Sequence record: OR062943.1
Length of the DNA: 64,000 nt
From: Escherichia phage 241Ecol014PP
Reading direction: 5' to 3' (one strand)
Both the position numbers and the translations under genes were made by a program. Shown piece after piece: positions 7,593 to 45,457 of this stretch; position 1 is the first letter of the stretch; each line of letters begins with the position of its first letter. The notes below the pieces were generated by a model. The model saw only the letters and a list, made by a program, of their open reading frames with translations, did not search any database and was not told the DNA's origin.

Positions 7593-8003
7593 TCAGTTTA
7601 GCTTTTCTTCAACAACCCCATAACTTGGGGCAGAGTCAAGAGCTTTCTGGTTTAAAAGTGGTGTAGCAGAATCTGCAAACGGTGTCCAAGTTTTTGTTCT
7701 GGCATTCCAGTAATGCTTCACTCTAGAATCTGGGTGCACTATAACAAAAACTTTTTCACTTGTCAACACATTAATTTCTTCCACACCTTTGCTGATAATT
7801 TCTCCGTCATATCCTCCGGTCTGGTATCCTTCGTACCAGGTTCTTGCATAGGCATAGCCAGCCTGCCAGCATGCAGCCTCCTCCGAGGTGGAGACTACGT
7901 AGAAGTCTTTCTCAAATTCTGGGATACGCCCTTGCTTTACGCTCCAAGTTCCGCGAATTTTCATTGTAACTTTGAACAGTTTATTTTTCACAACGGTTAC
8001 CAA
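7593..8003 (-). CDS. hypothetical protein, paralog of 5386-5781
   Basis: Shared C-terminal motif with 5386-5781. Confidence 0.5.
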   Translation of the reverse strand: MVTVVKNKLFKVTMKIRGTWSVKQGRIPEFEKDFYVVSTSEEAACWQAGYAYARTWYEGYQTGGYDGEIISKGVEEINVLTSEKVFVIVHPDSRVKHYWNARTKTWTPFADSATPLLNQKALDSAPSYGVVEEKLN

Positions 8004-8258
8004 TCACAGCTCTACAATATCTGCATCTGACCCTGCCCCAAAGGCATAATAGGACTCTTCCCCGAAATAATATTCCGGTGCACCAGCAGCGATCAGGTCT
8101 GATCCCAAGATAAACACCACGTTGTGGCCTACATAACTGTGATGTTGCCGCACAGGATCATCCCACGGCAACCCTTCAAAGTATACCGCAGGAACGACCT
8201 TTCCATTCAGGAAGGATTGTCCCAAGTAGACGTTAGAATCAAGAATTTTAACCTTCAT
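8004..8258 (-). CDS. hypothetical protein, MKVK-LD / DLIAAGA family member 1
   Basis: MKVKILDSNVYLGQ...GSDLIAAGAPE. Confidence 0.5.
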   Translation of the reverse strand: MKVKILDSNVYLGQSFLNGKVVPAVYFEGLPWDDPVRQHHSYVGHNVVFILGSDLIAAGAPEYYFGEESYYAFGAGSDADIVEL

Positions 8259-8475
8259 GATCGTCCTCCACTATCTCTACATCCTCACCTAGGGCAAAGT
8301 TGTAGGTCCACTGACTGTCAAAGCATTCCTGAGATGCACCAGCGGCAATAAGATCTGCCCCTTTTATTTTTAAAAGGTCAGGGTAATATTCGTTAGGGAC
8401 AGCAGTAAACACTTTCCCTACTAAAGGCTCCTGACCAATATAGAAGCTTGAATCTAAAACTTTAACTTTCATCAA
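8248..8475 (-). CDS. hypothetical protein, MKVK-LD / DLIAAGA family member 2 (tandem duplicate)
   Basis: MMKVKVLDSSFYIGQ...GADLIAAGAS. Confidence 0.5.
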   Translation of the reverse strand: MMKVKVLDSSFYIGQEPLVGKVFTAVPNEYYPDLLKIKGADLIAAGASQECFDSQWTYNFALGEDVEIVEDDHEG

Positions 8476-8759
8476 CGGTCTCCATCAGGTGGTTGTGGGA
8501 CGTAAACACTGTTACGAATATCGTCCGCAGTATAGTAATAAGTGTCTCCAACCCTGTCTCGGGCTGCAATGTACTCTGCTATACCAATAAGTGCCATTGA
8601 TTTGGTGGCGTATCTTCCCAACTCGTTAGCTCCCCAGTAGAATTTAGACCAGTAGGGAATAAGACCGAACAAATATACCTTTTGACGAACTTCCCAGTAA
8701 GTGCCTTTTCCGACAAGTTTAAACTCTACTTCACTACTGTTAATCTTTTTCATTATCAA
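8472..8759 (-). CDS. hypothetical protein
   Basis: ORF track. Confidence 0.45.
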   Translation of the reverse strand: MIMKKINSSEVEFKLVGKGTYWEVRQKVYLFGLIPYWSKFYWGANELGRYATKSMALIGIAEYIAARDRVGDTYYYTADDIRNSVYVPQPPDGDR

Positions 8760-33987: not shown

Positions 33988-34749
33988 TCAATCCTCAACA
34001 CAAGGTCTTGGATAGCCTCTGGATAACTTCCACTCAGTTAGTGACATTCCTCCGTAGAGACAGTTTACTTCCCAAGACTTTCTTGCACAAACTGCCTCCC
34101 ACCAGGGGTTTAGCCACTTCCTGTCGTTGAAGCACCTTAAGTTTCTTCCTTTGTTATCTCGTGCCCTCCAACAGGTATCTTTCTTAGACCAATCAATACC
34201 TGGCAGGATATTATTCTTGTGCGGGTTTGGAACTATCTTTAAAGCCTCTTCCGGGTTGGCTATTGACCATTCAACCCTAGACTTAGCCTCTTCGAAAGTG
34301 TCAAAATCTCCCAACCTAACATTTACCCTATTTATCCTTCTACTTGCCCTCCACTTACCCTCTCTTTTCAGCCATACCACACCAGTCACTGTAGAGGTGT
34401 TATTGCTTTGCACATTTTCCAAGGCTCTCTTACAGTAGTTATCCCAAGGCTTCAACATTTGAAGGTTTTCTATCTTGTCTACAGGCACTCCGTTAGTAGA
34501 ATTTTTCTTAGAGATAATATGATCAATATGCCAAGTATCTGTGACACATCCGTAAAACATGTCAAAAATTTCCCTATGTCTGCCACGTTTAACATTTGTC
34601 AGCTTATTGTACACTTGGAAATATCCAGTCTTTTTGTTGTAGTGTCCAGCCCTATTTCCATTCCTACTGCAGCCAGGTTTCCAAAAGATTAGATCACCAT
34701 CCTTGTACCAATAAGGGTAGTGATCATTAAAAAAGAAATGTATCGTCAT
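33988..34749 (-). CDS. free-standing HNH homing endonuclease with AP2-like DNA-binding domain
   Basis: HIDHIISKKNSTNG...NLQML and GVVWLKREGKWRASRRINRVNVRLGDFDTFEEA. Confidence 0.7.
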   Translation of the reverse strand: MTIHFFFNDHYPYWYKDGDLIFWKPGCSRNGNRAGHYNKKTGYFQVYNKLTNVKRGRHREIFDMFYGCVTDTWHIDHIISKKNSTNGVPVDKIENLQMLKPWDNYCKRALENVQSNNTSTVTGVVWLKREGKWRASRRINRVNVRLGDFDTFEEAKSRVEWSIANPEEALKIVPNPHKNNILPGIDWSKKDTCWRARDNKGRNLRCFNDRKWLNPWWEAVCARKSWEVNCLYGGMSLTEWKLSRGYPRPCVED

Positions 34750-35425: not shown

Positions 35426-36709
35426 TCATTCCAGAACCTCCCAAGTATCTGGGTTAACATTTCGGACGCAGATACCGACAGGGAATTGGTAGTTGTTGTC
35501 TTCTGTCCTTGCTTGATATTTGAAGGTGACAAACTTGCCGATCATTTCCTGCATCCTGTCATAGCTACGCTCCTCGTGCGTGCCTTTCATCTTCATTTTA
35601 ACAACAACACCCTCCTTGTCAACACAGATAAGAACACCTTCATCATTCTTATCTTTCTCAACGTCAATAACTTTCACCTCTGCGTCGTTGAACTTTTTCC
35701 ATTTCAATGCTTCAGATGTTCGCTGACCATACTCATACTTACCACAGAAGTTACGCATAATGGTACCTTCATATCCTTCAGACATAAATATACCAACAGA
35801 CTCTTCGCACCGATCAACTGTATATGCAAGCTCTGCATCAACAACCTTAATATGATCAAGCATCAAAGAAGAAATAGCACCATTTGCCTCCATAAGATCC
35901 TTACAGCGCCCAGACTCTGTTTCAGGATCCCACCACACCTTATCGCTAGGGATATCGAAAATATGATACTCTAAGTCGTAGCTGCAGTACCCTCCGTAAC
36001 GCAAATCATCACGAACAGGCTCAACATCAACAGGAATGTCCATCTTATTGAAGTTTTTGTATGTTGCTAAACCTGCCTTAATCGCAGCCTGACGGCGTTT
36101 TTTATCTGCCTCATAGTCTTTATCGATCTCGGCCTGAATCTCTTCCTGTGTGCGCCACCGTTTAGCAAGAGACACTATTTTCTGCAAAGGAAGACCATGA
36201 ATGTATAGTTCCCCATCAAGTTGTTTAATCCCAGTGGTAGAATGGAAAGAACGAAGTTGCTCTAAAAGCTTTCCTTGAATAGGGTAGGACTTATTACCAC
36301 GGGAAATAAATTTAGGCTCACCATTTTGGAAAACAACAAGCAGACGAAGGCCATCTAACTTACGCAAGATCCAGCAAGGTAATTTAAGTGCCTTGCCACG
36401 CTTCAGGTAGTCATGCACCAGCATGGGTAAAAGGTCAACACCCTGCTCGCAATCTTCCATGTTTTCAACATACCCCAGACGGACTTGTTTTTCCCACTTA
36501 CTGATCGCTTCCAGCTCGGCCTGTTGCTCAGCTGTAGTTTCATTGGTACGACCCACGTTCTTAGGTGTGCAGATCGTCTCTTTGTATTGCAGTTTACCAT
36601 CAAGCTTGCCAAACTCTACGATAACCTTATCACCATCCGTGAATACTTTCCACTGTTGGTAGCTGCCATCTTTGTTCAGTGCGTACAGTGTTGTTTTGAT
36701 TTGATGCAT
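35426..36709 (-). CDS. ATP-dependent DNA ligase
   Basis: Adenylation motif I KLDGLR within WILRKLDGLRLLVV. Confidence 0.7.
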   Translation of the reverse strand: MHQIKTTLYALNKDGSYQQWKVFTDGDKVIVEFGKLDGKLQYKETICTPKNVGRTNETTAEQQAELEAISKWEKQVRLGYVENMEDCEQGVDLLPMLVHDYLKRGKALKLPCWILRKLDGLRLLVVFQNGEPKFISRGNKSYPIQGKLLEQLRSFHSTTGIKQLDGELYIHGLPLQKIVSLAKRWRTQEEIQAEIDKDYEADKKRRQAAIKAGLATYKNFNKMDIPVDVEPVRDDLRYGGYCSYDLEYHIFDIPSDKVWWDPETESGRCKDLMEANGAISSLMLDHIKVVDAELAYTVDRCEESVGIFMSEGYEGTIMRNFCGKYEYGQRTSEALKWKKFNDAEVKVIDVEKDKNDEGVLICVDKEGVVVKMKMKGTHEERSYDRMQEMIGKFVTFKYQARTEDNNYQFPVGICVRNVNPDTWEVLE

Positions 36710-37303: not shown

Positions 37304-37336
37304 AACAAGTAAAGCCGGGTAATCCCGGCTATGTTG

Positions 37337-38050
37337 TTAAATATACTCTGTTACATCCTTGAAGCTAGAAGGCTTCATGATCTTACCTTTACTGTCAAGA
37401 AATATGATAACTTTATTACCGTTGTAGAATTCTTCCTTAGCAACAAAACCTTCATATCTACCATCAAAGCGTCGCTCAAGATCTTTAATCTCCAACTCGA
37501 TGAGTTGTTCAGCAGGCATATCTGCACTGGCACCGTGTGAATACCGTAGATGGTTGACCCGTGCAAACTTGCTGTCATTAGATTTGAGAACCTTACGCAT
37601 CATCCCGCACACATCGCCGCGAAGCTGGAACAGCAAAGCTGTTGACAACTCTGCTAAGCGGTAAGCGGATGCTCTTTGCTTAGAGGTGTTTTTCGCAGCG
37701 ATCAGTGTATCATAGAACTCACCGATCTTGAACTTAAGACCTCGCGGATTATCAAACAGGTTTGACCACTTTTCGTGATTATCATTAACAAGATAAGCGG
37801 CATAACTTGTGACAACGTGAAGATCGCAGGCCTCTTTTAGCAGGTGATCTCCACCATCACCTTTCTCCAGCTCTTCCAAAACTTCATTGAACTCTTCCTC
37901 AATGAAGCTAAGCTGTAATTCGAATGGTGTGTATGATTTTTTCACTTTAGCTGCCACACGGTTCCAGTTTTCCACCCAGTTGGCAGACCAAAAGTAGTTT
38001 TCAGGCTGAGACAGTTTTTCCAGGTTGTCGATCAGTTTAGTATTCAGCAT
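37337..38050 (-). CDS. MazG-like nucleotide pyrophosphohydrolase (tentative)
   Basis: Acidic helix EEEFNEVLEELEKGDGGDHLLKEACDL resembles MazG EExxE...D. Confidence 0.4.
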   Translation of the reverse strand: MLNTKLIDNLEKLSQPENYFWSANWVENWNRVAAKVKKSYTPFELQLSFIEEEFNEVLEELEKGDGGDHLLKEACDLHVVTSYAAYLVNDNHEKWSNLFDNPRGLKFKIGEFYDTLIAAKNTSKQRASAYRLAELSTALLFQLRGDVCGMMRKVLKSNDSKFARVNHLRYSHGASADMPAEQLIELEIKDLERRFDGRYEGFVAKEEFYNGNKVIIFLDSKGKIMKPSSFKDVTEYI

Positions 38051-38063
38051 TAAAGGTCTCCTT

Positions 38064-38825
38064 TTAAAGTTCCATAAAGTTTTCTACGGTCTCAATGAAT
38101 GTTTTATCAGAGAAAGCGTCAACCGCCCCGTTAAACCAAACTGGGATGCCGCGATCCTCATACTGGTAAATATCACTACGTGAAATTCCATTCTCCTCTA
38201 GATGCTGTGAGTCGTATTTGTTAACGATCAGCAGTTTGGTTCCCTTATTGCAGGCAGGGAATAGTTCCCAGTTAAAATTGATAACTGTGTTGGAACAACC
38301 TACAAGGATAACCATATCATTGCTCGTGAGAGAAGTCAACAGGTCATACATGTCTGTATACTTCGGAGCTACTTCTCCGAAGAACACCACATTAGGCTTA
38401 ACCCAGATATACTTTCCTGGATCTACCTCAGAGTATCCAATGTCCTTAATGACGTTACTTCCTTCATCGTCCTCATAGACTATTTCTGGCAAATACCCGT
38501 GGACATGTAGAATATCTTCATGTTTTACACCAGCACGCTCCAGCAAATCATCTACATTGGTGGTAAGATTGATCACACGGCCAGGCCAGCGGGAATACCA
38601 CTCAGCGATCCGGAGATGCGCAAGGTTAGGATCAACACTGCCCAGAGCTACACGGCGTGCATTGTAAAAGTCATGCACCTTATAGTAGTTCTTGGCAAAG
38701 GTGTGGATGTTGCACACCTCATCGATGCTGAAATTCTCCCACATTGCAGTGCTACCAGATCGGAAAGTGGGAATACCAGATTCAGCGCTCAAACCAGCAC
38801 CGGAGATAATAATCAGTCGTCGCAT
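38064..38825 (-). CDS. Sir2-family NAD-dependent protein
   Basis: GAGLSAESGIPTFR and HVHGYL match sirtuin GAGISAESGI-TFR and H-HG blocks; no Zn-ribbon Cys seen. Confidence 0.7.
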   Translation of the reverse strand: MRRLIIISGAGLSAESGIPTFRSGSTAMWENFSIDEVCNIHTFAKNYYKVHDFYNARRVALGSVDPNLAHLRIAEWYSRWPGRVINLTTNVDDLLERAGVKHEDILHVHGYLPEIVYEDDEGSNVIKDIGYSEVDPGKYIWVKPNVVFFGEVAPKYTDMYDLLTSLTSNDMVILVGCSNTVINFNWELFPACNKGTKLLIVNKYDSQHLEENGISRSDIYQYEDRGIPVWFNGAVDAFSDKTFIETVENFMEL

Positions 38826-38833
38826 AAGTGTCC

Positions 38834-39214
38834 TCAGTAGATGTTTTGTTTAATCTCTATTCCAAACTTTTTAAACGAGTCAGCTGCAAGCATGAATTTA
38901 CGAGCCGCTGATGGATTAGAAGTGTGCACGAAAATCTTCACGTTGTCAACTACAGGAGGCTTACCAAATACAAATTTTTCCTCTAACATGCAGAAACAGT
39001 CGTACCCTTCTAAGACTTCTCCTAAATCGCTGTCAAAATGCCACTCAGAAACGCGCCTGTAGAGCTTTCTATTATCGTTAATAAAATCCATGAACTCAGA
39101 AGAGTTCTTCAGCCAAAGAGCATTTTGGATTCCGTAATTTGACGGATCTCTCAAGTCATCCAGCCACACAATCAACTTCTTCATTGCATATAGTCCTCGT
39201 TGTGAAAATAGCAA
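38834..39214 (-). CDS. hypothetical protein in RNA-repair neighbourhood
   Basis: ORF track; real start may be internal Met (MKKLIVWLDD). Confidence 0.45.
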   Translation of the reverse strand: MLFSQRGLYAMKKLIVWLDDLRDPSNYGIQNALWLKNSSEFMDFINDNRKLYRRVSEWHFDSDLGEVLEGYDCFCMLEEKFVFGKPPVVDNVKIFVHTSNPSAARKFMLAADSFKKFGIEIKQNIY

Positions 39215-40116
39215 TCAAGTATCTCACGGCGTTCCTGCTCCAGGAGGCAGTTCCACACATCTTCTGTGTAATTGCTACGAATGAAGTTTACCATGCCGTA
39301 AAACTCTTCGTCAATACGTTTAAAGATATCATCATCCCAAATCTTCCAAGCTTTACCCCTCATTACGGCCTTCCGTGCCAAATAGTATGGAGACTTGATC
39401 TTCAGCTGCAGGTCATAAGGGTAGTAAGGCTTACGGATCATATACCCTTCGCCCCTTGTTTCTGCGGCTAATTCTTTTGCATAGCTGAACGGGATTTCAC
39501 GCACAGTGAGAGGACGTTTTGCACCAAGGTATTTGGCAATCCCATCTAAAGCTGCTTCTGGTAGCATTATTCCAGAATCATTATATCTGCAACCTATCAA
39601 ATATGCGCCATGGTCTTCTTGAACAATATGCGGATCTGAAGGGTGACAAATTTCAAACATGAATGTCATGTTTTCATTGCCCATAACCTTCTTGATAAGA
39701 TCTAAATTACCACATTGCTCTTGGATGGTTTCCTTTGCAAGGTTACAATATGGAGAATCAAGAGACCCGGTTGTTGAGAACAATAGGTCACCTTTATGAG
39801 ATGATACCACACCAAGGAATCCGTTCTTTTTCTCTACCGCAGTCACAAGCTTATTGTCAGGCAGGTTGGTGGAGTTTTCTCCCAAGTTAAACACTTTTGT
39901 GAAGGGCCATGCCACAACATTTCCTTCATTACCTACAACAATGCCTCGGCACTCCAGTAAACGAGGGGACAAATACCATAAATTGTTGTAAAATACTTTT
40001 CTAGCATATTTATAGATCTTTAACCCCAGATCTGGGTAATACCTACTGGTTACAAGACCTTTGTCAACTAGGTCGTCTGCATTAAAATACTTCATCATAC
40101 GTTCCTCATTTGTCAT
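39181..40116 (-). CDS. nucleotidyltransferase, RNA ligase-like (KxNG lysine motif)
   Basis: VEKKNGFLGVVS motif I-like; divergent from polynucleotide kinase gene. Confidence 0.5.
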   Translation of the reverse strand: MTNEERMMKYFNADDLVDKGLVTSRYYPDLGLKIYKYARKVFYNNLWYLSPRLLECRGIVVGNEGNVVAWPFTKVFNLGENSTNLPDNKLVTAVEKKNGFLGVVSSHKGDLLFSTTGSLDSPYCNLAKETIQEQCGNLDLIKKVMGNENMTFMFEICHPSDPHIVQEDHGAYLIGCRYNDSGIMLPEAALDGIAKYLGAKRPLTVREIPFSYAKELAAETRGEGYMIRKPYYPYDLQLKIKSPYYLARKAVMRGKAWKIWDDDIFKRIDEEFYGMVNFIRSNYTEDVWNCLLEQERREILDCYFHNEDYMQ

Positions 40117-40159
40117 TTTGTCAGTCTATCCTGCCACACAAATAACCTAGTGTCAACAC

Positions 40160-40188
40160 TTGAAATTAACAAAACAGTTAGGTATACT
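40160..40188 (+). promoter_or_regulatory. sigma70-like promoter TTGAAA-17-TATACT upstream of pnk
   Basis: Direct reading in divergent intergenic region. Confidence 0.4.
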
Positions 40189-40216
40189 ATCGTTGAAATT
40201 AAAACGGAGGGTCACT

Positions 40217-40627
40217 ATGTCTAAAATGCTATATATCGTGCGTGGTCTACCAGGGTCTGGCAAATCAACACTGGCAAATGCGCTATCTTTAGAGGGTCTG
40301 TATCCACATTTTGAGAACGACATGTTCTGGTATGACGATGACGGCAATTACAACTGGGATGCAAGTAAAGTAACACTCGCAGCGAAATGGTGCAAAGATA
40401 ACGTAGAAGATATGATGCGTATGGGATACGACCGTATCGTGGTAAGTAATACGTTTACAAAAGAAAAACATGTGCAGGAATATGTTGACATGGCAATCAG
40501 TCATGGGTATAGTTATACCGTGATCGTGGTTGAAAACCGCCACGGTAATAAAAGCATTCATGATGTTCCAGACAAGGTTGTGGATCGTATGGAACGCCAG
40601 CTTAAAAACTGCATTAAACTTAAATGA
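40217..40627 (+). CDS. pnk: polynucleotide 5'-kinase (P-loop)
   Basis: LYIVRGLPGSGKSTLA Walker A; start trimmed to ATG after GGAGGG. Confidence 0.7.
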   Translation: MSKMLYIVRGLPGSGKSTLANALSLEGLYPHFENDMFWYDDDGNYNWDASKVTLAAKWCKDNVEDMMRMGYDRIVVSNTFTKEKHVQEYVDMAISHGYSYTVIVVENRHGNKSIHDVPDKVVDRMERQLKNCIKLK

Positions 40628-40634
40628 GGAATGT

Positions 40635-41189
40635 ATGAAATACTTTGTAACAAGCGACACACACTTTCTCCACCAGCGGGTCATGGAGTTTGATTCATGT
40701 CAAAAACACAGATCTCAGTATGATCACAATCTTGACAGTATGAATGCGGGAATCATCGCCGAATGGAACTCTGTTGTGTCACCTGCAGACACTGTGTTCC
40801 ACTTGGGAGATATTGCGTGCACTAATGATAAGAATATCAACAACTTACTTCCAGATATTCTAAATATGTTGAACGGACATATTATTCTTGTTCGTGGCAA
40901 CCATGACACAAGGACGACTGTCAGAATTATGAAAGAGTTCGGTCATGAGGTTGTAGATTATTACGAGCTTCGCCACAACAAGAATTTGATCTGTATGAGC
41001 CATTACCAGTTTGCAAAGTGGAACAGAAAGCCTCACGGATCAGTCCAACTGTTCGGTCATGCTCACGGAACCACACAACAGTTGTTTGGCAGACAGTTTG
41101 ATGTCGGTTGGGATGTGTGGGGGAGACTCTTACCATTAGAAGAGGCATACCGTATTGCAATGAGTTTTGCTATTGACAGCGGGGAGTAA
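40635..41189 (+). CDS. calcineurin-like metallophosphoesterase
   Basis: SDTHF, GDI, GNHD metallophosphatase motifs; start trimmed to ATG after GAGGAA. Confidence 0.7.
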   Translation: MKYFVTSDTHFLHQRVMEFDSCQKHRSQYDHNLDSMNAGIIAEWNSVVSPADTVFHLGDIACTNDKNINNLLPDILNMLNGHIILVRGNHDTRTTVRIMKEFGHEVVDYYELRHNKNLICMSHYQFAKWNRKPHGSVQLFGHAHGTTQQLFGRQFDVGWDVWGRLLPLEEAYRIAMSFAIDSGE

Positions 41190-44125: not shown

Positions 44126-44200
44126 GCCCTGTTAGCTTAGTGGATAAAGCAGCGGCCTTCTAAGCCGTTGACACTGGTTCGAGTCCAGTACGGGGTGCCA
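44126..44200 (+). tRNA. tRNA-Arg (anticodon TCT), CCA encoded
   Basis: Manual cloverleaf: acceptor GCCCTGT/ACGGGGT (two G-U), D GCTT/AAGC, anticodon loop CTTCTAA. Confidence 0.75.
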
Positions 44201-44330: not shown

Positions 44331-44418
44331 GGTGAGTTAATTCCGTAGGGGTAGCGGGGCAGACTGTAAATCTGTTATCATTGCGATTCGGGTGGTTCGA
44401 CTCCATCACTCACCACCA
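44331..44418 (+). tRNA. tRNA-Tyr (anticodon GTA), class II, CCA encoded
   Basis: Acceptor GGTGAGT/ACTCACC; anticodon arm GCAGA-CTGTAAA-TCTGT as in recalled E. coli tRNA-Tyr. Confidence 0.8.
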
Positions 44419-44532: not shown

Positions 44533-44623
44533 AGAGGGTAGGGAGCAATGGTGCTCAAGCGGTCTTGAAAACCGTCCCGTTGAGGATGACTCGATGATGG
44601 TTCGATTCCATTATCCTCTGCCA
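44533..44623 (+). tRNA. tRNA-Ser (anticodon TGA), class II, CCA encoded
   Basis: Acceptor AGAGGGT/ATCCTCT; anticodon loop CTTGAAA; long variable arm. Confidence 0.7.
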
Positions 44624-44721: not shown

Positions 44722-44820
44722 GCTAGGTAAGCCCTTTGGCAAGGGCGAGGATTTTTAATCCTGAAAATAGACGAGGTAGTCGTTGAATACATAGGTGGTT
44801 CGATTCCACCGCCTAGCACC
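44722..44820 (+). tRNA. atypical ~97-nt tRNA-like element; anticodon unassigned (possibly TTT)
   Basis: Perfect acceptor GCTAGGT/GCCTAGC and T-arm GGTGG-TTCGATT-CCACC, but 65 nt between acceptor and T-arm. Confidence 0.4.
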
Positions 44821-44988: not shown

Positions 44989-45411
44989 CTCCGCGTAGCT
45001 CAGCTTGGTAGAGATAATCAAAGATGCACAAATGCAGTCGTTGTGGGGAAGAAGATCCATGTAAATTTTATGGTCATAAAAAGACTATATGTGGGAAATG
45101 TCACAATGAGTACACCATGAATCTTGGGAGGCAGAAACGACAGTATGCTGTAGACAAGTTAGGCGGTAAATGTATCAATTGTGGGTTCGATAAATGGATT
45201 GTTTCTTTAGATATTCACCATTTAGACCCTAAAATTAAAGACTCTAAATTTGCTCAAATGAGAGGTTGGAGTCTGCAAAGAATTGATAATGAAATTAAAA
45301 ACTGTGTATTACTTTGTAGAAATTGTCATGCTGCCGTACATGCAGGACTTTTAGAACTACCATAACTTTGGGATCAGGAGGTCGAGTGTTCGAATCACTC
45401 CGTGGAGACCA
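44989..45411 (+). tRNA. class II tRNA gene interrupted in the anticodon loop by an HNH endonuclease ORF (halves 44989-45027 and 45363-45411; anticodon GCT/Ser if loop is AUGC+UAA)
   Basis: 5' half CTCCGCG-TA-GCTCAGCTTGGTAGAG..CAAAG; 3' half CTTTG-GGATCAGGAGGTC-GAGTGTTCGAATCACTC-CGTGGAG-A-CCA; acceptor 7/7, anticodon stem 5/5. Confidence 0.5.
45024..45365 (+). CDS. HNH endonuclease located inside the split tRNA gene
   Basis: CINCG...LDIHHLDP...N...LLCRNCHAAVH; ATG at 45024 directly after anticodon-stem strand, TAA at 45363-45365 directly before its complement. Confidence 0.75.
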   Translation: MHKCSRCGEEDPCKFYGHKKTICGKCHNEYTMNLGRQKRQYAVDKLGGKCINCGFDKWIVSLDIHHLDPKIKDSKFAQMRGWSLQRIDNEIKNCVLLCRNCHAAVHAGLLELP

Positions 45412-45457
45412 CTTTCAGTTATACTTTAAACATATACAAACAAAAGGAACCTTTAAA

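Follow-up and report, generated by a model that had tools for sequence, protein, structure and literature searches.

Background

RNAs cut by metal-independent host ribonucleases carry a 2',3'-cyclic phosphate on one side of the break and a 5'-OH on the other, and in phage T4 the enzymes Pnkp and Rnl1 together form a counter-measure to the anticodon nuclease PrrC. Here we analyze a stretch of 64,000 nucleotides from Escherichia phage 241Ecol014PP (sequence record OR062943.1; hereafter the window), in which positions 37337 to 41189 hold a cluster of six genes. Three of these encode an RNA ligase of the Rnl1 family, a kinase of the polynucleotide-kinase clade and a calcineurin-type metallophosphoesterase (together, the trio); the other three encode a cREC domain protein, a sirtuin and a MazG-like protein. 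Overall, we consider it probable that the cluster is an accessory RNA-break repair locus of Vequintavirus phages, composed of a core and an accessory layer. Our confidence is higher for the core taken by itself, in which kinase, phosphoesterase and ligase would, by analogy with known systems, repair RNA.

The closest description in the literature is that of Iyer, Burroughs, Anantharaman and Aravind (2022; PMC9503650, section 3.7.3), who reported the same sirtuin neighborhood as the second of their types, with phage V5 as the prototype and with Proteus phage Mydo. They predict that the sirtuin removes 2'-phosphates in the manner of KptA/Tpt1. A third neighborhood type in the same paper joins the T5-type sirtuin to a HAD 'Swiss-army-knife' phosphatase. 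The cRec domain had been named and tied to RNA ligases in a 2021 jumbo-phage paper by the same authors (PMC7824862). Our literature search found no experimental work on cREC or on phage sirtuins (the NARP3 paper mentions host Sir2-HerA only). The window is an instance of this already described phage system, and nothing essential in it differs from configuration 2 of PMC9503650.

Organization and conservation of the locus

Start codons of the six genes were re-set using ribosome-binding sites, the GenBank annotation of relatives and alignments of homologues. Four genes run leftward on the minus strand, in the order ATP-dependent RNA ligase (39181..40098, 305 amino acids (aa)), cREC single-domain protein (38834..39184, 116 aa), sirtuin (38064..38825, 253 aa) and MazG-like protein (37337..38050, 237 aa). 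For the ligase, an alternative upstream ATG at 40116 was judged less likely than the start that gives 305 aa. Two genes run rightward on the plus strand: the P-loop kinase of the 5'-OH polynucleotide-kinase clade (40217..40627, 136 aa) and, after it, the compact, binuclear calcineurin-type metallophosphoesterase (40635..41189, 184 aa).

The leftward genes are tightly packed. The ligase stop and the cREC start overlap by 4 bases, and the intergenic gaps that follow measure 8 and 13 bases. Directly 3' of the MazG-like stop codon lies a terminator-like hairpin (37313..37330, minus strand; AGCCGGG-ATTA-CCCGGCT with a T-rich tail, found by a consensus scan only), which, judging from its sequence, is probably the end of the ligase-cREC-Sir2-MazG transcript. 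Given the overlap, the short gaps and the hairpin, the four genes look like one unit that is set apart from the downstream DNA-ligase group. Consequently cREC, sirtuin and MazG-like protein appear to be co-transcribed with the ligase; they also appear to be confined to this phage lineage and its relatives. Between the divergent ligase and kinase genes lies an intergenic region of 118 bp (40099..40216), in which consensus matches only were scored: a sigma-70-like site (TTGAAA-17-TATACT, 40160-40188) that points to the kinase, and a GGAGGG ribosome-binding site. The sign of the GC skew flips at this spacer, where two large phage transcription arms diverge. According to the annotation of a relative, the arm headed by the repair locus is filled with genes of DNA and nucleotide metabolism.

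An earlier note on this DNA, drawn up from the letters alone, had reported a KxNG ligase, a P-loop kinase and a calcineurin-type phosphoesterase within 4 kb, encoded as three separate, divergently transcribed genes with a Sir2-family and a MazG-like gene directly adjacent. All of this holds: the open reading frames (ORFs) are present, their motifs were verified, the ligase lies on the minus strand with kinase and phosphoesterase on the plus strand, and the two further genes adjoin the repair genes. The note had also likened the domain set to that of bacterial Pnkp or Trl1. Here only the first half stands, as kinase, metallophosphoesterase and ligase are indeed the set of bacterial Pnkp, whereas Trl1 has a 2H phosphodiesterase.

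Conservation of the cluster is considerable. A search with the 4.6 kb around it gives 117 phage records that align at 90-98% identity over 80% or more of the length. Apart from records with Campylobacter or generic names, these are rV5-like (Vequintavirus) phages of Escherichia and Shigella, and the gene names RNA ligase, sirtuin/Sir2, polynucleotide kinase or ATPase, and phosphoesterase are already in use there. From sequence alignments, the catalytic motifs appear to be intact throughout the six-gene cluster. Together with reordered relatives at 45-60% protein identity and the presence of the trio in 39 of 55 distant loci (both described below), the 117 records argue that the cluster is not a product of chance.

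The RNA ligase

The ligase matches PF09511 (RNA_lig_T4_1) over the complete model (positions 1-227 of 227; expectation value (E) 2e-14; 54.5 bits against a cut-off of 28.3), and also phrog_562 (E 6e-65), a family that is filed under 'tail'. It is 25% identical to T4 RnlA and misses the TIGR02308 equivalog cut-off (38.6 versus 242 bits). Since PF09511 is matched and the TIGR02308 score is far below the cut-off, we assign the protein to the Rnl1 family without regarding it as an equivalog of T4 RnlA. A nine-member family profile was searched against 177,635 distinct PDB sequences and reached only T4 Rnl1 (2C5U and 9DO4, E 1e-9); no DNA ligase and no capping enzyme was matched, and Trl1 structures were not reached at E <= 1. 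PF09511 includes the Trl1 ligase domain as well, and KxNG is the Trl1-type form of motif I. Family profiles were required for this comparison, as single-sequence PDB searches with the ligase or the kinase gave nothing useful.

Motif I of the ligase reads VEKKNGF and its nucleophilic Lys is invariant across the family. In the numbering of the 311-aa ORF, with T4 RnlA aligned from the T4 record, the invariant residues are K96 and G99 (motif I), F154-E155 (III), E223-G224 (IV) and K239 and K241 (V, KIKS). R57, K74 and F76 are invariant too. They are the equivalents of T4 Arg54, Lys75 and Phe77, which reportedly emerged from mutagenesis in the Shuman laboratory as essential residues specific to Rnl1.

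Many relatives carry the annotation 'RNA ligase 1 and tail attachment protein', in agreement with the filing of phrog_562. It might be argued on this basis that the enzyme is mainly a catalyst of tail-fiber attachment, as T4 gp63, and that its neighbors are unrelated to it. We consider this highly improbable. The annotation has been carried over from T4, the gene sits in the early metabolic region and not among the tail genes, and all catalytic motifs of a ligase are strictly conserved. In addition, the orthologue in Vequintavirus Bas54 (bas54 0209) is non-essential, with insertions at 56 of 60 TA sites (10.1101/2025.11.20.689424), whereas the N-terminal domain of T4 rnlA is intolerant of them. 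As the Bas54 ligase tolerates insertions, the annotation as a tail-fiber attachment protein is contradicted for growth on K-12.

Kinase and metallophosphoesterase

By itself the kinase matches generic P-loop families (AAA_33, E 1.7e-10) and phrog_505, 'polynucleotide kinase' (E 7.6e-10). With a ten-member family profile, the top five places among the PDB matches go to polynucleotide kinases of RNA repair (E 3e-6 to 2.5e-5), namely Capnocytophaga Pnkp1 (4XRP, 3e-6), T4 Pnk (1LY1, 1.4e-5; 1LTQ, 1.9e-5), the kinase of C. thermocellum Pnkp (4GP6, 2e-5, matched over nearly its full length) and a Rhizopus kinase (9D8A, 2.5e-5). Gluconate kinase and other sugar or nucleotide kinases rank lower, and are matched through the P-loop only. 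This P-loop is GLPGSGKST in the window protein; invariant in the family are GxxGxGKST, E33 and D35 (the E-x-D past strand 2) and R108, the Arg in the NRHGN lid. In T4 Pnkp, D35 is the general base and R38 and R126 bind phosphate. The alignment with T4 is gapped near the general-base segment, and the equivalents of R38 and R126 are not conserved as Arg.

Profile searches had been proposed in the earlier note as a check on its interpretation, with DNA ligase or capping-enzyme families for the ligase and nucleotide metabolism for kinase and phosphatase named as contrary assignments. None of these occurred: the ligase belongs to an RNA-ligase family, and the kinase groups with polynucleotide kinases of RNA repair. 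Overall, our comparisons of profiles, structure and gene context support the interpretation of the note.

The metallophosphoesterase scores above the gathering threshold for both PF12850 and PF00149, and matches phrog_547 with E 1.5e-52. Across 14 family members, none of the six calcineurin-type motifs (DxH, GD, GNHD, H, GH and GHxH) varies, the residues being D8, H10, G58-D59, G88-N89-H90-D91, H123, G141-H142 and H144. Its closest PDB relative is the uncharacterised Aquifex protein aq_1665 (1XM7, E 1.8e-21).

Gene neighborhoods across phages

From IMG/VR we gathered 60 sirtuin-anchored, 79 ligase-anchored and 68 cREC-anchored loci, which were annotated with profiles built iteratively from the window proteins. 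Clustering of the ligase-anchored loci at 80% identity left 55 non-redundant clusters, and the counts given here and below refer to these. A kinase is present within 3 kb of the ligase in 45 clusters, a phosphoesterase in 44, and both together in 39, although the order of the three genes varies. Two of the clusters (14 loci) even show kinase and ligase fused in one ORF of approximately 431 aa. These ORFs are found in uncultured phage contigs (L097 7530-8822 and 13 similar loci, among them L098, L102-L104 and L108-L115) and join a PNK-clade kinase, recognized by its AAA_33 match, in the N-terminal half to an Rnl1-like ligase in the C-terminal part; no phosphoesterase was detected in the fusion loci. 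Also, the kinase and ligase of the window match separate parts of the same 737-column family, phrog_8238. The 39 clusters, the fusions and the shared PHROG together indicate that the trio of kinase, phosphoesterase and ligase is a conserved functional unit well beyond this phage group.

In closer relatives the accessory genes stay with the trio. The rV5-, PVP-SE1- and Mydo-like phages differ in gene order and keep the accessory genes adjacent nonetheless, also where protein identity is only 45-60%. In PVP-SE1, for example, one strand carries phosphoesterase, two genes, ligase, cREC, kinase, Sir2, DNA ligase, two further genes and MazG.

cREC and MazG-like proteins

The gene next to the ligase had previously been listed as an unknown ORF. 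The ORF is indeed there, and its product can be identified as a cREC ('cyclic-phosphate processing receiver') domain protein (PF20274, 51.7 bits versus a cut-off of 27). Apart from the profile match, it shows a CheY-like receiver fold and an acidic pocket, and it has no histidine-kinase partner. D9, D10 and D51, at the ends of strands 1 and 3, are invariant, and D53, H87, S89 and N90 almost invariant. Chemistry by way of an aspartyl phosphate is common to receiver and HAD domains. The cREC protein is likely a hydrolase that works by phosphoryl transfer on cyclic or terminal phosphates, and thus a predicted RNA-end enzyme. Hydrolysis of RNA 2',3'-cyclic phosphate or of ADP-ribose 1''-2'' cyclic phosphate by such proteins has been predicted only (PMC9503650, PMC7824862). 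Outside the ligase loci the neighbors of cREC are generic (helicase, thymidylate synthase, glucosaminidase), and a search for additional Pfam domains in long cREC-containing ORFs found none.

Three relatives possess ligase, kinase, sirtuin and MazG-like genes and have no detectable cREC. Between kinase and sirtuin they contain a conserved ORF of 161-162 aa without a Pfam match (L044 9302-9790, L056 9079-9564 and L058 9090-9575), which may be a non-homologous stand-in for cREC.

The MazG-like protein matches phrog_671 (E 1.9e-21); scans of Pfam and NCBIfam gave no match, and its family profile found a weak HisE match only in the PDB (E 0.03 over 35 residues). An EExxE...D pattern is present with E52, E53, E56 and D76 invariant, and a conserved C-terminal module (SNDSK, GKIxKP) follows. 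From the PHROG, the acidic pattern and the HisE match we regard the product of 37337-38050 as a putative all-alpha NTP pyrophosphohydrolase-like protein.

The sirtuin

The sirtuin is readily recognized by PF02146 (E 1.3e-26; 94 bits, cut-off 24) and by phrog_2162 (E 6e-110). A 27-member profile gives E. coli CobB as the best PDB match (E 1.5e-28), followed by SIRT5 and Sir2-Af. CobB is also the best Foldseek match (TM 0.73-0.83) of an AlphaFold2 (AF2) model with a pLDDT of 89.9. Identity to the CobB/SIRT5-type class III relatives amounts to 27-28%, and the scores are far under the NCBIfam equivalog cut-offs for CobB. Invariant in the 27 sequences are G9-A10-G11, S16-G17, F21-R22, N90, D92, H109-G110, F148-F149 and E151; G150, which completes the FFGE motif, is at least 90% conserved. 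The YxxR motif is an invariant FYNARR, identical to that of CobB. The remark made earlier that the usual Zn-ribbon cysteines are missing is valid well beyond the window: a Zn ribbon needs four, and the segment from the His to the FGE has 0-1 Cys in 26 of the 26 scorable members (27 aligned). Despite this loss, the strands of the small domain are still predicted in the AF2 model. Alignment and model together suggest that the protein derives from a class III (CobB/SIRT5-like) sirtuin, with the NAD-binding and catalytic residues intact.

In class III sirtuins the YxxR motif holds the carboxylate of succinyl- or malonyl-lysine. Sirtuin chemistry starts with an oxygen nucleophile on C1' of the nicotinamide ribose, after which attack by the 2'-OH yields a 1',2'-cyclic intermediate. 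These two steps parallel, by analogy, the two steps of Tpt1. Homology to Tpt1/KptA was not found; the window protein has a sirtuin fold, and only functional analogy is possible. Neither is a KptA-like gene annotated in the corresponding region of relatives. The sirtuin might be an RNA 2'-phosphotransferase non-homologous to Tpt1, and not a protein deacylase. This idea, which we judge unlikely, has already been published (PMC9503650) and coincides with a speculation in the earlier note.

If it were so, the invariant Tyr and Arg of FYNARR would grip the 2'-phosphate of the RNA in place of an acyl carboxylate. A phosphate oxygen would attack C1'' of NAD+, and the ribose 2''-OH would then resolve the adduct to ADP-ribose 1''-2'' cyclic phosphate. 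Opening of cyclic phosphates would fall to cREC, and removal of the by-product to the MazG-like protein. With ligase and kinase, this would amount to a full Trl1/Tpt1-like pathway made of unrelated folds. An independent role of the sirtuin, directed at proteins, is better placed in our estimate, though we would not call it probable. A third suggestion, that the sirtuin counters NAD-depleting host defense, found no support and was dropped: the enzyme is itself a consumer of NAD+, no NAD-salvage gene is annotated in the locus, and a NAMPT gene is a neighbor only in one distant T4-like contig.

The same sirtuin clade occurs in other settings. In T5-like phages (58% identity) it adjoins the HAD_SAK_2 phosphatase (PF18143), without a ligase. 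That the partner of the sirtuin is cREC in one lineage and a HAD phosphatase in a second hints at a role downstream of an enzyme acting on terminal phosphates.

In phi92/Phapecoctavirus-like phages the sirtuin (approximately 49% identity) comes after a series of five conserved genes, with products of about 310-334, 130, 227, 215 and 170-195 aa (L005 1123-5010, L036 6712-10010 and L037-L042). We considered whether these could be divergent repair proteins and rejected the idea: hhalign probabilities against ligase, kinase, cREC, phosphoesterase, MazG and HAD are all below 6%, and Pfam finds only DUF7275 and DUF7277, on the first protein (about 330 aa) of phiWec179. Together with the sirtuin, the five genes may constitute a different sirtuin-linked system. 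In the T4-like contig mentioned above (about 120 kb; L062 8057-13125), a homologue (N-terminal 180 residues, 48% identity) is flanked by NAMPT on one side and by endonuclease VII and NrdD on the other. The pairing of a nicotinamide-recycling enzyme with a nicotinamide-releasing one is suggestive.

Proposed mechanism

For the core we propose the logic of T4 Pnkp and Rnl1, carried out with the domain set of bacterial Pnkp split over three genes. The kinase would phosphorylate 5'-OH ends of RNA, the metallophosphoesterase would strip a 2',3'-cyclic or 3'-phosphate to leave a 3'-OH, and the Rnl1-type ligase would adenylate the 5'-phosphate and seal it to this 3'-OH. This would restore RNAs, whether tRNAs or others, after cleavage by host ribonucleases that are independent of metal, for instance anticodon nucleases. 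With a phosphoesterase present, an intermediate bearing a 2'-phosphate is not required, and the trio would be self-sufficient.

The accessory layer would add three activities. The receiver-fold cREC, with its Asp-Asp...Asp pocket, would hydrolyze cyclic or terminal phosphates. The sirtuin, following the published hypothesis, would act in the manner of Tpt1/KptA and use NAD+ to take a 2'-phosphate off the mended junction. The MazG-like protein would hydrolyze a nucleotide pyrophosphate that is either a by-product or a signal. The whole locus would be dispensable in the laboratory and would be expected to matter only on hosts with RNA-cutting defenses.

Weighing the evidence

A number of observations weigh against an RNA repair locus of this composition, and we discuss them here together with the two alternatives that draw on them. 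With respect to the core, the equivalent of T4 K119 is Thr throughout the ligase family, and this residue is therefore not conserved. After motif V only some 65 residues remain, which cannot be aligned to the C-terminal domain of T4 Rnl1, an all-helical domain of about 120 aa that is implicated in tRNA specificity. The phosphatase of C. thermocellum Pnkp (4J6O) is matched by the window phosphoesterase with E 0.038 only and belongs to a different subfamily; the window enzyme may work like the Pnkp phosphatase without being a member of that subfamily. Finally, an ATP-dependent DNA ligase occurs within 8 kb of the RNA ligase in 23 of the 55 clusters, which makes DNA ends a possible substrate.

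In the window itself such a DNA ligase (35426-36709) is found 2.5 kb from the cluster, and the locus leads an arm rich in genes of DNA and nucleotide metabolism. T4 Pnkp acts on DNA too, and the phosphoesterase weakly resembles PdeM, a ligase-associated enzyme of DNA damage (E 2.4e-4, far under the cut-off). Kinase and phosphoesterase might thus clean 5'-OH/3'-phosphate DNA breaks left by host nucleases, replication or recombination for the DNA ligase to join; the Rnl1-like enzyme would have DNA or hybrids as its substrates. We nevertheless rate the healing of DNA as improbable. The ligase profile reaches T4 RNA ligase 1 and no DNA ligase, the closest relatives of the kinase are RNA-repair kinases, and where the kinase is fused to a ligase it is to an RNA ligase and not to a DNA ligase. 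Moreover, the cREC and HAD_SAK families have been defined by RNA-repair contexts.

With respect to the accessory layer, the objections are more serious. A sirtuin is found within 8 kb of the ligase in just 7 of the 55 clusters, cREC within 3 kb in 8 and a MazG-like gene within 8 kb in 9, so that the accessory genes accompany the ligase in only 13-16% of cases. In Phapecoctavirus-like contigs a block of cREC, phosphoesterase, ligase and kinase lies about 30 kb away from the sirtuin on the same contig, and in the T4-like contig the sirtuin homologue adjoins NAMPT. The ligase family is present in 767 phage records (including Escherichia 198, Pseudomonas 177, Streptomyces 127 and Vibrio 83) and the sirtuin clade in 1012 (including Escherichia 375, Salmonella 289 and Klebsiella 131). 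The two sets overlap mainly in Vequintavirinae and their relatives and are mostly separate. Of the 68 cREC-anchored loci, most lie outside recognizable RNA-repair contexts. The sirtuin is most closely related to protein deacylases, and its family is acidic (pI 4.6-5.8), unlike typical RNA-binding enzymes.

It may thus be that the repair module consists of the trio alone, and that the genes for sirtuin, MazG-like protein and possibly cREC have auxiliary functions of their own and share only the early-gene cluster with it. The sirtuin would then be a CobB-like NAD+-dependent deacylase (of the desuccinylase type) or an ADP-ribosyltransferase acting on host or phage proteins, and the MazG-like protein a hydrolase of the nucleotide pool or of alarmones. 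This is a real possibility, to which we give roughly one third of our belief. The kinship with CobB, SIRT5 and Sir2-Af in sequence and structure and the retention of CobB's exact FYNARR fit it well, as do the hundreds of T5-like phages that have the sirtuin without this ligase, and the separation of the MazG-like gene of PVP-SE1 from its sirtuin by the DNA ligase and two genes. It accounts less well for the four tightly packed or overlapping window genes bounded by a terminator-like hairpin, or for the fact that the sirtuin remains adjacent to ligase, cREC and kinase after rearrangement in relatives of 45-60% identity. Furthermore, an unrelated T5-like lineage pairs the sirtuin clade with HAD_SAK_2, a predicted RNA-end phosphatase, and the clade-wide loss of the Zn ribbon suggests that the small domain, which binds the substrate, has been altered. 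We continue to favor a repair locus with both a core and an accessory layer.

Our literature search found no biochemical or genetic test of the six individual proteins, which also counts against the proposal. Functional data were found solely in HIDEN-SEQ, a preprint (10.1101/2025.11.20.689424) in which Bas54 was compared on K-12 and on two clinical isolates, hosts that were not picked for tRNA nucleases. Besides the ligase, the genes for the MazG-like protein (bas54 0206, 35 of 40 TA sites hit), the sirtuin (0207, 48 of 51), the kinase (0210, 33 of 36) and the phosphoesterase (0211, 26 of 27) are non-essential, and cREC (0208, 16 of 21) is classified as Intermediate. On K-12, insertions in the genes of the cluster have no fitness effect. 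In at least one of the two comparisons with clinical isolates no change is seen either (log2 fold change +0.1 to +0.4, adjusted p 0.75-1). These results provide no positive phenotype; at the same time, such dispensability fits the expectation for a conditional counter-defense.

tRNA genes and other features of the window

A tRNA cluster begins at 44126, which is 2.9 kb past the phosphoesterase stop and agrees with the distance of about 3 kb noted before. Its tRNA-Lys(UUU) gene (44722-44818, plus strand) has a variable region enlarged by a further arm of some 26 nt, made up of a 5-bp stem and a 5-nt loop; the resulting likeness to a type II tRNA is unusual for tRNA-Lys. ARAGORN reports it as 'tRNA-???' of 99 nt with a 4-base anticodon, and the Rfam tRNA model gives 31 bits; in phage WalterGehring a tRNA-Lys of 97 nt is annotated at the matching place. 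tRNA-Lys is the target of PrrC, RloC and PARIS; with a repair locus close by, this altered phage copy may serve as a replacement that resists nucleases.

The tRNA-Pro(UGG) gene (44989-45413, plus strand) contains an insert of 353 nt (45014-45366) with an ORF for an HNH endonuclease of 113 aa (45024-45365). In comparison with the intact gene of WalterGehring, it lacks 7 nt (CGCCTGA), which make up the end of the D-stem together with the 5' strand of the anticodon stem, and with this loss the gene is probably dead. The insertion is shared by 13 of the 117 related records, and group I intron models did not match the insert. We had considered a protein-dependent tRNA splicing role for ligase, kinase and sirtuin. 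This was rejected: the extra nucleotides of tRNA-Lys are located in the variable region and not in the anticodon loop, and the break in tRNA-Pro is an HNH insertion with a 7-nt loss and no group I intron match.

Two more genes on the plus strand are tRNA-Tyr(GUA) (44331-44415), with a long variable arm, which was found by Rfam (39 bits) and missed by ARAGORN, and tRNA-Ser(UGA) (44533-44619), for which the tRNA-Sec model (39.4 bits, below gathering) scores better than the general tRNA model. The Ser and Lys tRNA genes of the window are absent from the relative APECc02. Elsewhere, an ORF of 253 aa (33988-34749, minus strand) between the endolysin and upstream genes resembles, by eye, a homing endonuclease of the HNH/AP2 type; as it has no counterpart at that position in WalterGehring, it is probably a mobile insertion. 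In the leftward arm, the annotation of APECc02 (L067 7987-8712, corresponding approximately to window 8000-8700, minus strand) lists genes for a 'sigma 54 modulation factor' and for the 'ribosome-associated translation inhibitor RaiA' (HPF/RaiA-like).

Significance

Relative to the published description we make four additions. The phosphoesterase is a regular and not an occasional member of the core (44/55 clusters), and fusions of kinase and ligase exist. Sirtuin, cREC and MazG-like protein are lineage-restricted add-ons whose link to the ligase looks looser than the literature suggests, and the sirtuin keeps the FYNARR motif of CobB. As the genes are annotated in more than 100 records and the neighborhood has been published, the gain from a genome scan is small.

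If the module works as proposed, common E. coli phages, including those in therapy collections (e.g. BASEL), would be able to survive tRNA-cutting defenses, and the genes would be ones to watch with respect to systems of the PrrC, RloC, PARIS and retron types. A sirtuin acting on an RNA 2'-phosphate would add a new reaction to an intensively studied family of enzymes, and would mean that the Tpt1 step has been solved twice, independently. This substrate question is the only part with a wider reach, and the six proteins are small and easily expressed.

Comparison with known systems

The T4 system of Pnkp (pseT) and rnlA is similar in several respects. The window ligase is of the Rnl1 family, with motifs I, III, IV and V and the Arg/Lys/Phe residues kept, and the kinase falls in the clade of the T4 Pnk kinase domain. 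The module is likewise phage-encoded, near phage tRNA genes and dispensable on ordinary hosts. Differences are found at the 3' end, which would be healed by a separate binuclear metallophosphoesterase in the window and is healed by a fused HAD (DxDxT) domain in T4, and in the ligase, which has 305 aa and no T4-like C-terminal domain. The Bas54 orthologue of this ligase is not needed for plaques, whereas T4 rnlA is intolerant of insertions in its N-terminal part. Also, the window adds the cREC, sirtuin and MazG-like genes.

Bacterial Pnkp-Hen1 (C. thermocellum Pnkp; Capnocytophaga Pnkp1-Rnl-Hen1) shares with the window the combination of a kinase, a calcineurin-type phosphoesterase and an adenylyltransferase ligase. 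In the window, however, three genes on two strands take the place of a single polypeptide, the ligase belongs to the Rnl1 type and not to the Pnkp ligase type, and the phosphoesterase stems from another subfamily. A Hen1 methyltransferase is not annotated in the corresponding 64 kb of APECc02, as judged by annotation only and without a profile search. Should the published hypothesis be true, the locus would also resemble Trl1 plus Tpt1/KptA, with a ligase, a kinase, an opener of cyclic phosphates and an NAD+ consumer. Unlike that system, it has no 2H phosphodiesterase and no Tpt1/KptA homologue, for which cREC and sirtuin would be hypothetical, non-homologous stand-ins.

Lastly, the sirtuin compares with CobB and SIRT5 in having GAGxSxxSGxxxFR, TxNxD, the catalytic HG, FGE and FYNARR. 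It differs from them in belonging to a clade without the four Zn-ribbon cysteines, one that is encoded by phages and resides in neighborhoods of RNA-end processing.

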